From NCBI RefSeq assembly GCF_056746865.1, contig NZ_CM163382.1: DNA of 64,000 nucleotides, one strand, 5' to 3'. Under the pieces are notes generated by a model, which had not been told where the DNA came from, made no database searches, and was given only the letters and a program-made list of their open reading frames with translations. This document shows positions 7,216 to 57,624 of this stretch, piece after piece. The translations under genes were made by a program, and so were the position numbers. The first letter of the stretch is position 1; every line of letters starts with the position of its first letter.

Positions 7216-9363
<2,148 letters not shown>

Positions 9364-9377
9364 AGGTCTGGTATTAC

Positions 9378-9477
9378 TGCCGGATGCGGCGTGAACGCCT
9401 TATCCGGCCTACAAAACCTTGCTAATTCAATATATTGCAGGGACTATGTAGGCCTGATAAGCATAGCGCATCAGGCA
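9378..9477. repeat. REP/BIME element (two inverted REP units)
   Basis: tgccggatgcggcgtgaacgccttatccggcctaca ... tgtaggcctgataagcatagcgcatcaggca; classic enterobacterial REP palindromes between convergent cmoB and torZ. Confidence 0.8.
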
Positions 9478-9527
9478 GCTTTACGTTTGCATAACCTCAG
9501 CGCCCGTTTCCGGGCGCTATTCACTTC

Positions 9528-13389: not shown

Positions 13390-14225
<836 letters not shown>

Positions 14226-27672: not shown

Positions 27673-27699
27673 TTATCGGCAAGGAGGGGGGAAACTTTA
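27673..27699 (-). promoter_or_regulatory. Sigma-28 (FliA) class 3 promoter of the tar-tap-cheRBYZ operon
   Basis: Minus strand reads TAAAGTTT-N11-GCCGATAA, a perfect match to the sigma-28 consensus, about 30 nt upstream of the tar start. Confidence 0.85.
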
Positions 27700-27726
27700 T
27701 TGCTGATGCCACCCGCCGCGAAATTG

Positions 27727-27757
27727 AAATAAAAAACCCGATGCGCAGATCATCGGG
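27727..27757 (-). terminator. Rho-independent terminator after cheW (end of the motAB-cheAW operon)
   Basis: Minus strand: cccgatg-atctgcg-catcggg followed by TTTTTTATTTC. Confidence 0.75.
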
Positions 27758-27785
27758 TTCATTTCAATTGAGGAAATCGGGAGAA

Positions 27786-45986: not shown

Positions 45987-46073
45987 ATGGTACCCGGAGC
46001 GGGACTTGAACCCGCACAGCGCGAACGCCGAGGGATTTTAAATCCCTTGTGTCTACCGATTCCACCATCCGGG
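45987..46073 (-). tRNA. leuZ: tRNA-Leu (anticodon UAA), 87 nt
   Basis: Reverse complement matches GCCCGGATGGTGGAATCGGTAGACACAAGGGATTTAAAATCCC...GGGTACCA with encoded CCA; coordinates within about 1 nt. Confidence 0.95.
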
Positions 46074-46085
46074 CTCGGGAAGAAA

Positions 46086-46159
46086 GTGGAGGCGCGTTCC
46101 GGAGTCGAACCGGACTAGACGGATTTGCAATCCGCTACATAACCGCTTTGTTAACGCGC
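46086..46159 (-). tRNA. cysT: tRNA-Cys (anticodon GCA), 74 nt
   Basis: Reverse complement GGCGCGTTAACAAAGCGGTTATGTAGCGGATTGCAAATCCGTCTAGTCCGGTTCGACTCCGGAACGCGCCTCCA. Confidence 0.95.
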
Positions 46160-46212
46160 CAAATTCTTCAGGCCTTTCAGCCAGACATCCGCTGACGCCG
46201 ATGTCTTTTAAA

Positions 46213-46289
<77 letters not shown>

Positions 46290-55241: not shown

Positions 55242-55961
55242 TTATAACTTACCCAGTTTAGTGCGTAACCGTTTAATGGCCTGGCTGTGTAACTGACTGA
55301 CCCGCGATTCCCCGACCTCCAGCACTGCACCAATCTCTTTGAGATTCAGCTCTTCCTGGTAATAGAGGGTTAATACCAGTTTTTCGCGCTCCGGCAACAT
55401 TTCGATGGCTTCCATCACCCGCTGGCGCAGATTACTGTCCAGCAGTTGTTGTAGCGGGTTTTCTCGCTGATGATCATCAGTAACCAGTTCGATGCTATCG
55501 CCGTGCTCTTCGCGCCACTCATCGTAGGAGAAGAGCTGGCTGTTATTGGTGTCGAGCAACATTTGGCGATAATCGGCTATATCGATCCCTAAACGTTCCG
55601 CTACCTCAGTTTCCGTGGCGTTGCGGCCAAGTTCCTGCTCCAGTTGCCCTATTGCCTGTGCCACTTCACGCGCGTTGCGTCGCACGCTGCGCGGCACCCA
55701 GTCACGGCTGCGAAGTTCATCCAGCATAGCGCCACGGATACGCTGCACTGCGTAAGTTGTAAATGCCGTTCCTTGTAGGGCGTCATAGCGTTCGACGGCA
55801 TTAAGTAACCCAATGCCGCCCGCCTGTAGCAGATCGTCAAGTTCCACGCTCGCGGGCAGTCGAACCTGCAGGCGCAATGCTTCGTGACGCACCAGCGGGA
55901 CATAACGCTGCCACAGCGAGTGTTTATCCATTACACCTTCAGCGGTATAGAGTGAATTCAC
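55242..55961 (-). CDS. fliA: Flagellar sigma factor FliA (sigma-28; 239 aa)
   Basis: ORF 55242..55961; sigma-70 family regions 2 and 4. Confidence 0.97.
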   Translation of the reverse strand: MNSLYTAEGVMDKHSLWQRYVPLVRHEALRLQVRLPASVELDDLLQAGGIGLLNAVERYDALQGTAFTTYAVQRIRGAMLDELRSRDWVPRSVRRNAREVAQAIGQLEQELGRNATETEVAERLGIDIADYRQMLLDTNNSQLFSYDEWREEHGDSIELVTDDHQRENPLQQLLDSNLRQRVMEAIEMLPEREKLVLTLYYQEELNLKEIGAVLEVGESRVSQLHSQAIKRLRTKLGKL

Positions 55962-56083
55962 GATAAACAGCCCTGCGTTATATGAGTTATCGGCATGATT
56001 ATCCGTTTCTGCAGGGTTTTTAATCGGACGATTAGTGGGTGAAATGAGGGGTTATTTGGGGGTTACCGGTAAATTTCATGCAG

Positions 56084-56106
56084 AAAAAACCCCGCCGGTG
56101 GCGGGG
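56084..56106 (-). terminator. Rho-independent terminator of fliC
   Basis: Minus strand: ccccgcc-acc-ggcgggg followed by U6; lies after the REP element in the fliC 3' UTR. Confidence 0.7.
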
Positions 56107-56137
56107 AAGCACCTTGCTGACAAATTGCGCTTTATGT

Positions 56138-56238
56138 TGCCGGATGCGGCGTAAACGCCTTATCTGGCCTACAAAAATGTGCAAATTCAATAAATTGCAA
56201 TTCAACTTGTAGGCCTGATAAGCGCAGCGCATCAGGCA
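56138..56238. repeat. REP/BIME element (two inverted REP units) in the fliC-fliA intergenic region
   Basis: tgccggatgcggcgtaaacgccttatctggcctaca ... tgtaggcctgataagcgcagcgcatcaggca. Confidence 0.8.
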
Positions 56239-56280
56239 ATTTGGCGTTGCCGTCAGTCTCAGTTAATCAGGTTACAACGA

Positions 56281-57624
56281 TTAACCCTGCAGCAGAGACA
56301 GAACCTGCTGCGGTACCTGGTTAGCTTTAGACAGCACAGAGTTACCCGCCTGCTGGATGATCTGCGCTTTCGACATGTTGGACACTTCGGTCGCATAGTC
56401 GGCGTCCTGAATACGGGACTGCGCTTCAGACAGGTTGGTGGTGGTGTTATTCAGGTTGGTGACCGCAGAATCCAGACGGTTTTGTACGGCACCGAGGGAG
56501 GAGCGGAAAGTATCAACTTGCGAGATAGCTTTGTCTAAAAGTGCCAGCGGATCGTTGGTTGCAGTACCAGAAAATGTTGCTGTTGCCGCTGTTTTTACAG
56601 AACCATCAACATCGAGTTCATCGGTAAGTTGGATTTTTGTGTCTTCATTTGTTGCAGCGTCACCACCGTTTTCAATTGCATCCTTACCGTCTGCACCAGC
56701 AAGGTAATCTTTGCCTTGAATAGTAACATAGCCAACAGCCGCGCCAGCACTATTCGTCGTGACCTTGATAGGCTGACCTGTCTGTGTTGCTGTGGTAACA
56801 CCGTTCGCAGGATCAGTGAAAGTAACATTGGTGGTATTAAGCGTAACAACGCCACCAGCATTAACGGAAGCCGAATAGAAGTCATTACCAGATTGAACAA
56901 CATAGGTTCCTGTCGCTTTACCATCCGCGCTTTGTACGTTATGTAGGGACAAGCCTGATGTATCACTTATTCCCAATGTTTTAGCCATTGCGGCAGCAGC
57001 GGTATCGTTCGCACCAAATTTAACCGTAACCGGGGCATCGCCAGCATTAGCACCAGGAACTGTAGTTATCGCATCGCTAACTTTTAATGCGTTCCCTGAT
57101 ACCGAGAAACCTTTCAATCCCAGCGTTGAAGAATCAATTTTCTGCAAATCGATAGAGATGGTCTGCCCGTCATTCGCGCCAACCTGAATCTTCATCGAAC
57201 CGTCTTTCGCCAGCACGTTCACGCCGTTGAACTGGGTCTGACCGGAAACGCGGTCAATTTCGTCGAGACGGGATTTGATTTCGTCCTGAATGGAGTCCAG
57301 ATCCGAATCAGAGTTAGTCCCGGTAGAAGCCTGAACCGTCAGTTCACGAATACGCTGTAAGTTGTTGTTGATTTCGGACAGCGCGCCTTCAGTGGTCTGT
57401 GCAACAGAAATACCGTCGTTGGCGTTACGTGCAGCCTGAGTCAGGCCTTTAATGTTAGAAGTAAAACGGTTAGCAATCGCCTGACCTGCGGCGTCATCCT
57501 TCGCGCTGTTAATACGCAAGCCAGAAGACAGACGCTCGATAGAACTCGACAGCGCAGACTGGTTCTTGTTGATATTATTTTGAGTGATCAGCGAGAGGCT
57601 GTTGGTATTAATGACTTGTGCCAT
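56281..57624 (-). CDS. fliC: Flagellin FliC (447 aa); conserved N/C termini with a central variable (H-antigen) domain that is not K-12 H48
   Basis: ORF 56281..57624; MAQVINTNSLSLITQNNINKNQSALSSSIERLSSGLRINSAKDDAAGQAIANRF... and C-terminal ...QVPQQVLSLLQG; length 447 aa versus 498 aa for K-12. Confidence 0.97.
   Translation of the reverse strand: MAQVINTNSLSLITQNNINKNQSALSSSIERLSSGLRINSAKDDAAGQAIANRFTSNIKGLTQAARNANDGISVAQTTEGALSEINNNLQRIRELTVQASTGTNSDSDLDSIQDEIKSRLDEIDRVSGQTQFNGVNVLAKDGSMKIQVGANDGQTISIDLQKIDSSTLGLKGFSVSGNALKVSDAITTVPGANAGDAPVTVKFGANDTAAAAMAKTLGISDTSGLSLHNVQSADGKATGTYVVQSGNDFYSASVNAGGVVTLNTTNVTFTDPANGVTTATQTGQPIKVTTNSAGAAVGYVTIQGKDYLAGADGKDAIENGGDAATNEDTKIQLTDELDVDGSVKTAATATFSGTATNDPLALLDKAISQVDTFRSSLGAVQNRLDSAVTNLNNTTTNLSEAQSRIQDADYATEVSNMSKAQIIQQAGNSVLSKANQVPQQVLSLLQG

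Follow-up and report, generated by a model that had tools for sequence, protein, structure and literature searches.

FliX of E. coli K-12 is a processed, sigma-28-dependent RNA of about 200 nt that derives from the fliC 3' UTR and co-precipitates with Hfq (Melamed 2023, eLife; PMC10578931). In MG1655 it spans 2,001,912-2,002,106, i.e., 195 nt (PMC8175672). According to the eLife report, a shorter form of about 100 nt (FliX-S) includes one REP, both forms yield abundant RIL-seq chimeras, and the effects of FliX-S are stronger than those of FliX (PMC10578931). In the same report, FliX reduces fliC mRNA, flagellin and the number of flagella, and rplC, rpsS-rplV and rpsQ fusions are repressed through pairing within the coding sequences. 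Direct pairing is supported there by the M1 and the compensatory rpsS-M1 mutants, with compensatory rescue in vitro, and the phenotypes of a chromosomal seed mutant are modest, i.e., more flagella late in growth and unchanged motility (PMC10578931). The FliX locus itself is therefore already known, and since the sRNA is published, little is gained from recognising it in one more E. coli strain. The analysis adds three modest points: the seed stems from the repeat, FliX is an accessory, allele-linked RNA across E. coli, and the strain at hand has a rare allele.

The second system to compare with is the BIME-1 element, in which a Y and a Z1 REP flank a long conserved L linker, in many cases with an IHF site; such elements are located at transcription-unit 3' ends (PMC3333891) and differ in presence or absence among isolates (PMC1187871). 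REPs have been described as mRNA stabilisers and terminators (PMC3333891, PMC7038943). The nearest analogue of FliX is GlnZ class III from the K-12 glnA 3' UTR (bioRxiv 10.1101/2022.04.01.486790), which, like the REP-inserted MgrR of E. fergusonii, is Hfq-dependent as FliX is. In these RNAs, too, a REP insertion changes sRNA length and structure between lineages and the REP forms a long stem. In contrast, GlnZ has an ancestral seed that is located outside the REP and retained without the insertion, while the FliX seed is repeat sequence and is lost in strains with a short UTR.

We analysed a stretch of 64,000 nt (assembly GCF_056746865.1, contig NZ_CM163382.1), in the following called the window. 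The features of the locus are collected in Table 1.

Table 1. Features in and around the fliC 3' UTR, in positions of the 64,000-nt window
Feature	Position	Strand	Remarks
fliA	55242-55961	minus	from ORF list
fliC/FliX intrinsic terminator	56084-56106	minus	7-bp stem, 3-nt loop, U6 tract
Full-length FliX orthologue, 194 nt	56084-56277	minus	begins 3 nt past the fliC stop, ends at U6
FliX-S orthologue, 105 nt	56084-56188	minus	half of the linker, REP-Z, seed and terminator
Complete BIME-1, ~150 bp	56110-56262		left flank, REP-Y, L linker, REP-Z1, right flank
SNP just 3' of the seed	56113	minus	RNA G; C in K-12 and six other alleles
FliX seed UUGUCAGCAA	56114-56123	minus	within the conserved right flank of BIME-1; M1 triplet GCA at 56116-56118
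REP-Z1 GCCGGATGCGGCGTAAACGCCTTATCTGGCCTAC (plus strand)	56139-56172		SNP at 56165; partial Rfam naRNA4 match
L linker, 36 nt, AU-rich	56173-56208		IHF-like site and FliX-S 5' end inside
IHF-like site ATTCAATAAATTG	56185-56197		1 mismatch to consensus WATCAANNNNTTR
REP-Y GTAGGCCTGATAAGCGCAGCGCATCAGGC (plus strand)	56209-56237		from sequence, inverted repeats and alignment of copies
Left BIME-1 flank (RNA CUGAGACUGACGGCAACGCCAAAUU)	56238-56262	minus	imperfect inverted repeat of the right flank
fliC (flagellin, 447 aa)	56281-57624	minus	from ORF list and translation; parent mRNA of the 3' UTR RNA
Sigma-28-type promoter-like site TAAAGGTT-N11-GACGATAA	57701-57727	minus	upstream of fliC; pattern match with 2 mismatches

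The fliC product has the ends that are typical of flagellin (MAQVINTNSL... at the N-terminus, ...VLSLLQG at the C-terminus), and the reading frame ends in TAA (complement of 56281-56283). The promoter-like site upstream of the gene was scored against the sigma-28 consensus TAAAGTTT-N11-GCCGATAA. Downstream, the stem-loop CCCCGCCACCGGCGGGG (56106-56090) pairs exclusively by G-C and is directly followed by TTTTTT (56089-56084). The stem starts 174 nt after the fliC stop and the U tract ends 197 nt after it, so that the sequence-only reading, which had described a long UTR of about 195 nt ending in this terminator, was correct on both points. The terminator scan reports one strong terminator on the minus strand. 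Because the terminator consensus scan is not significant by itself (3 sites vs 3.3 expected), the call rests on the strength of the stem and on its conservation, i.e., the terminator is kept in long-UTR and short-UTR genomes alike (see below). Together with its U tail it is expected, by analogy with K-12, to form the FliX 3' end that binds Hfq. Two small ORFs that overlap the UTR, 56078-56212 (plus, 44 aa) and 56032-56232 (minus, 66 aa), were rejected as coding, since they consist of REP and terminator sequence, and since about 35% of E. coli genomes lack this stretch. Elsewhere in the window, Rfam matches at gathering level are found at 13391-13698 (minus), 27689-27766 (plus) and 45991-46289 (minus), i.e., the MicL sRNA (370 bits), the C0465 RNA (111.6 bits) and three tRNA genes.

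A comparison of the UTR with K-12, which the earlier reading had proposed as a check, gives 192 of 194 identical positions in the alignment with the K-12 fliC-fliA spacer. The two RNAs are distinguished by two substitutions, i.e., RNA G for C at 56113 and A for G at 56165, and by a U6 instead of a U7 tail (194 vs 195 nt). The oligonucleotides published for K-12 (SM044, SM673, SM043, SM675 and SM045; PMC10578931) can all be placed on the locus with at most one mismatch. The FliX 5' cloning primer SM044 (56277-56254) and the 3' primer (56038-56059) match perfectly, the FliX-S 5' primer SM673 (56188-56164) shows one mismatch, which is the SNP at 56165, and the Northern probe (56100-56127) also shows one. 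The derivation of FliX from this region, as put forward by the earlier reading, is well supported by the alignment and by the fit of these primers and probes.

The RNA lies on the same strand directly 3' of the fliC stop, ends at the fliC terminator, is homologous to the 195-nt K-12 FliX and carries an intact GCA-containing seed just 5' of the terminator; complementarity to the rpsS, rplC and fliC coding sequences is predicted by RNAduplex. It thus shares locus, architecture, seed core and terminator with K-12 FliX and FliX-S, and the 5' ends, probes and M1 site published for these two RNAs can all be placed on it. Given these observations, we consider it very probable that 56084-56280 (minus strand) is the fliC 3' UTR orthologous to the FliX sRNA locus of K-12. 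Expression, processing sites and Hfq binding in this strain we infer from K-12. Among the Rfam 15 matches at the locus there is no FliX family. Besides the sequence changes, the locus is unlike K-12 in its parent gene, which is a rare fliC allele of 447 aa vs 498 aa in K-12, and the predicted target site within fliC (nt 399-455) differs slightly from that of K-12.

Most of the RNA turns out to be repeat sequence, i.e., FliX is composed of an 18-nt unique leader, the BIME-1, three nucleotides (CUU) and the terminator. The REPs at 56209-56237 and 56139-56172 are inverted relative to each other (inverted repeat I1 with 16-nt arms, 94% complementary) and align to 43 copies from other genomes, where the labels Y and Z1 follow the description in the literature. 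In a BLAST match between fdhE and yiiF of NEBExpress, a strain without fliC, about 150 nt are aligned, from CTGAGACTGA up to TTGTCAGCAA. The copies between pfkA and sbp and between glnQ and ybiO are collinear with the fliC-UTR element in the same way, and so is the consensus of the 43 copies. From these alignments it follows that the repeat in the fliC UTR is a complete BIME-1 of about 150 bp. The sequence-only reading was right about a REP/BIME pair in the UTR, but had recognised neither the complete IHF-type BIME-1 nor that the seed lies within the repeat. Like the described BIME-1 (RIB/RIP, ~140 bp), the element has inverted REPs, a conserved linker with a putative IHF core (one mismatch) and both conserved flanks; it is a single copy at the 3' end of a transcription unit, and it is present in some isolates (3502 genomes) and missing in others (about 1870). 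It is unlike other BIME-1 in that one flank has gained a documented role as sRNA seed.

Rfam matches at the locus reflect the same repeat. The linker matches ES036 (CssrF), a REP-linker family, at 56175-56216 with 42.9 bits vs a gathering threshold of 37.6, on the plus strand, i.e., antisense to FliX. As this match is antisense and a second BIME-1 of the window gives one as well, we treat it as a generic BIME-1 linker match and rejected it as a gene call. REP-Z resembles naRNA4 (CssrE) in part: the match at 56129-56169 reaches 36.5 vs 59.5 bits and skips 42 of the 77 model positions, which is below membership. Beyond these two, Rfam yields one spurious mir-192 match (E = 0.16) at the locus.

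A second BIME-1 is located at 9370-9480 of the window, directly after the ORF 8392-9363 (plus), with an ES036 match at 9413-9455 (45.5 bits). The TTGTCAGCAA motif is missing from its REP-Z flank, and hence not every BIME-1 has a FliX-type seed. In other genomes, 13 of 38 BIME-1 copies show the same local terminator hairpin on both sides (direct repeats of 8-22 nt), where the upstream hairpin is without and the downstream one with a T-run (e.g., loci L056, L044, L042, L022, L026, L028, L038 and L051). Judging from these 13 copies, BIME-1 elements seem to insert at intrinsic terminators and to duplicate them; the fliC element is without such a duplicated flanking hairpin. In strain IDR1900005638-01-02 (locus L009), the pfkA-sbp BIME-1 has a transposase gene of IS621 (IS110 family) upstream of its REP-Z, and the REP-Y half of this copy is no longer alignable with other copies.

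To locate the seed, the published FliX duplexes were reconstructed from the oligonucleotide sequences of PMC10578931. The M1 primer changes GTCA(GCA)ACG to GTCA(CGT)ACG and the rpsS-M1 gBlock has the complementary TGC-to-ACG change (PMC10578931), which together place the seed core GUCAGCAA at 56121-56114. The full seed motif occurs once in the window. Comparing these positions with the repeat, we find that the FliX seed is the conserved outer flank of BIME-1, i.e., it is repeat-derived as judged from sequence. Downstream of REP-Z, GCGCA-NN-TTGTCAGCAA is common to all four independent E. coli BIME-1 loci.

We also scanned species-representative genomes with the pattern ATCCGGCA-N8-11-GCA-NN-TTGTCAGCAA. 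The scan, in which the motif is imposed by the pattern, resulted in 78 matches at 76 loci, 70 of them in REP context and up to 18 per genome. The 70 REP-context copies stem from E. albertii, E. whittamii, other Escherichia and Pseudocitrobacter. Support that is independent of the scan comes from the paralogues found by BLAST and from the conserved TCTGA just past the motif. Likewise, the left flank consensus TGAGACTGATGACAAACGCAAAATT, which the search did not impose, is conserved in 43 full copies. Among 45 further REP-Z copies outside the pattern, near-motif variants are present in 17 (13 bystander copies and four E. coli fliC-UTR alleles), while the remainder are mostly internal junctions of tandem arrays. 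None of the 76 loci from the species-representative genomes lies beside fliC or fliA. Since the BIME-flank pattern misses some E. coli FliX alleles (GGTAAT for GCGCAA), the scan says nothing on FliX conservation beyond E. coli.

By crude heuristics, 46 of the 70 copies have a same-strand ORF ending just upstream, 29 have a terminator-like hairpin with T-run, and 19 have both. The 3' UTR of pfkA (pfkA-sbp spacer; positions 555-800 of locus L010, also L016 and L059) has a FliX-like layout, i.e., BIME-1, TTGTCAGCAA and the terminator GGCGGATTTCTTCCGCC-TTTTT, and is a candidate for a putative sibling RNA with the FliX seed. As the seed is the terminal flank of the repeat, other units of BIME-1, same flank and terminator could release RNAs with the same seed. 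The RIL-seq supplement holds nothing decisive on RNAs from the pfkA, glnQ and fdhE 3' UTRs. Within the literature found, the coverage of which is incomplete such that novelty is not proven, no paper states the BIME origin of the FliX seed, and earlier accounts of REP- or BIME-derived seeds are general statements only.

Energy-based folding was used to predict how the repeat may affect the seed. The 201-nt UTR RNA has an MFE of -72.1 kcal/mol compared to -55.9 +/- 4.5 kcal/mol in shuffled sequences (z = -3.65, 0/200 shuffles equally stable). In both minimum-energy and ensemble folds of full-length FliX, REP-Y pairs with REP-Z and the seed is base-paired to the left flank (CUGACGG:UUGUCAG). In full-length FliX, seed positions are unpaired with a mean probability of 0.22 (window allele) or 0.29 (K-12), compared to 0.50 in FliX-S. 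That is, single-sequence folding predicts that the seed is masked in full-length FliX and more accessible in FliX-S, which would fit the stronger effect published for FliX-S. On the other hand, RNAalifold on 44 BIME-1 copies results in local REP hairpins instead of the flank helix, with a covariation term of zero. Flank-to-flank pairing in register is seen for 65% of the cells, vs 26-48% when the flanks are slid against each other, but on no covariation measure does the helix exceed shuffles. A conserved flank-to-flank RNA helix was thus rejected as unproven: given in-register pairing without covariation across the 44 copies, the flanks are an inverted repeat at the level of sequence.

Next to these structural properties, we assessed how the element is distributed among 5426 complete genomes of E. 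coli. Of these, 3502 match the 322-bp fliC-fliA spacer with 94-100% identity (spacer coverage of at least 80%); they have the long UTR with BIME-1 and seed as in the window and include K-12 H48, O157:H7 and O2:K2:H1; O139:H28 (E24377A) and one O145 strain, which are also matched by a 61-nt seed probe, belong to this class. Three short classes make up most of the remainder. Class A (864 genomes, TAA-TTTACACTTATCGCTCAAA) has a fliC ending in LSLLR and includes O103:H2, O111:H8 and O26, class B (780, TAA-TGGCCTTAACCTGCCTGA) has 349-aa flagellins, among them O25b:H4-ST131, and class C (228) reads TAA-TCGCCTGAATGCCTCTCAAA. The four classes cover 5374/5426 genomes. Reading the UTRs directly, the short classes (about 1870 genomes) have a UTR of 18-20 nt with neither BIME-1 nor seed, and their match to the window is limited to the terminator and the fliA upstream region. 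At the level of sequence, FliX is therefore an accessory RNA of about 65% of the complete E. coli genomes that is linked to the fliC allele. The suggestion of the sequence-only reading that REP content varies between strains holds in so far as genomes either have the BIME-1 in full, seed included, or lack it altogether. As to the REP number, none of 40 sampled BLAST rows shows a variation at the locus, while rare variants are possible. Two genomes have disrupted neighbours: in STEC388 (locus L002) fliC is truncated beside an IS5 transposase, and in MS10711 (locus L089) fliA is annotated as pseudogene with an internal stop.

The distribution bears on two alternative readings. First, BIME-1 could act on the DNA level, i.e., as an IHF site or topological insulator between the strongly transcribed fliC and the fliA promoter region, with the RNA being incidental. 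The linker indeed matches the conserved L motif and carries the predicted IHF site, and L linkers often have such a site in elements at transcription-unit 3' ends (PMC3333891). However, the element is missing in about 35% of the genomes although these retain the fliA upstream region, which argues against a required architecture, the IHF site is a prediction by pattern match, and the seed-dependent RNA effects in K-12 are left unexplained. We regard this role as very unlikely to be the main one. Second, BIME-1 might be an insertion, neutral or selfish, that is carried along with certain fliC alleles, such that FliX activity is a by-product of the K-12 lineage without selection here. This reading fits a presence/absence polymorphism that is linked to the fliC allele, the known variation of BIME-1 among isolates (PMC1187871), a seed that is merely the conserved flank of a repeat, and the lack of covariation. 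Against it, the seed is intact in 7 of 8 long-UTR alleles, with one change in the remaining allele, and the compared alleles belong to flagellins of very different lengths; moreover, the K-12 data show function. On balance, hitch-hiking as the full explanation appears unlikely to us, and we keep to the reading of the UTR as a FliX orthologue.

Finally, we compared the allele of the window with the other long-UTR alleles. At 56165, within the REP-Z stem, the RNA has an A instead of the G of K-12 and six other alleles, and both this and the substitution at 56113 occur only in the window allele among the eight alleles compared. The U6 tail is the commoner state (6/8 alleles). The exact 61-nt seed-to-terminator stretch (56090-56150) including the change at 56113 is present in 33/5426 genomes, while the fliC variable region (56650-57150) is found in 11/5426 complete E. 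coli genomes at 99.8-100% identity, i.e., the fliC allele is rare. Strain D2 from dog (NZ_CP010137.1) matches the window best.

Duplex energies were compared for the different alleles using RNAduplex, which recovers the rpsS site deduced from M1 and the gBlock. For rpsS we obtain -23.3 kcal/mol with the K-12 allele, -21.8 with the window allele and -17.1 with M1. For the window's own fliC (nt 399-455) the values are -22.5 (K-12 allele) and -20.2 kcal/mol (window allele), and for rplC -19.8 and -21.4 kcal/mol, respectively. The change at 56113 loses a predicted C-G pair with both rpsS and fliC. The G-to-A change at 56165 breaks a pair of the REP-Z hairpin, which makes the predicted FliX-S fold 6.2 kcal/mol less stable (-38.1 vs -44.3 kcal/mol in K-12), and turns a G-U into an A-U pair of the REP-Y:REP-Z helix, where full-length FliX has -72.1 vs -69.7 kcal/mol in K-12. 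It is thus predicted that the substitutions spare the seed core, make the extended duplexes with rpsS and fliC slightly weaker and destabilise FliX-S. If the folding model is right, both changes would favour the closed full-length FliX.

A seed-adjacent SNP and a predicted weaker REP-Z hairpin are among the points in favour of a third reading, in which BIME-1 serves mainly as a REP stabiliser, i.e., in which its hairpins would stop 3'-to-5' exonucleases and shield the very abundant fliC mRNA, with FliX fragments being decay intermediates of little regulatory effect here. The strong structure of the UTR (z = -3.65), the description of REPs as mRNA stabilisers or terminators (PMC3333891, PMC7038943) and the modest phenotypes of the chromosomal fliX-M1 mutant in K-12 point in the same direction. 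Yet, K-12 FliX and FliX-S are found with Hfq and in RIL-seq chimeras, repression of reporters depends on the seed, and compensatory mutations rescue pairing in vitro. Furthermore, in the roughly 35% of genomes without BIME-1 the terminator hairpin already guards the 3' end. Stabilisation as the main role is possible but rather improbable, and the stabiliser and sRNA roles of BIME-1 are mutually compatible.

Taking the locus as a FliX orthologue, its course of action would be that known from K-12. Sigma-28 would drive fliC transcription, which would stop at the terminator as in the K-12 experiments. A cut 3 nt past the fliC stop would release the 194-nt FliX and a second cut within the linker the 105-nt FliX-S; both steps are carried over from K-12, as is the binding of Hfq by terminator and U tail. 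The seed just upstream of the terminator would then pair inside the fliC, rpsS, rplC and rpsQ coding sequences, and this pairing may result in less flagellin mRNA and fewer flagella late in flagellar assembly.

For E. coli biology, the absence of FliX means that what is known from K-12 about a link between flagella and ribosomal proteins cannot be assumed for short-UTR lineages, among them the O103:H2, O111:H8, O26 and O25b:H4-ST131 strains seen here. With about 35% of the E. coli genomes lacking the element, the contribution of FliX is dispensable. The rare allele of this strain is a natural variant for testing the effects of the extended duplex and of REP stability on FliX and FliX-S. In general, the repeat-derived FliX seed is a concrete case of a mobile-type repeat supplying the seed of an sRNA, and it predicts siblings with the same seed. 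A further-reaching idea, which we put forward tentatively and with more doubt than confidence, is that FliX is an exapted BIME-1 and part of a repeat-borne family of sRNAs or competitors, i.e., of Hfq-binding 3' UTR RNAs with the same seed, whose control is switched by allele exchange. If this is true, repeat-borne sRNAs or competitors from the pfkA copy and from those in Escherichia and Pseudocitrobacter would act on the same ribosomal-protein and flagellin mRNAs, and, as about 35% of the genomes are without the element, exchange of the fliC allele (H antigen) would toggle FliX control.
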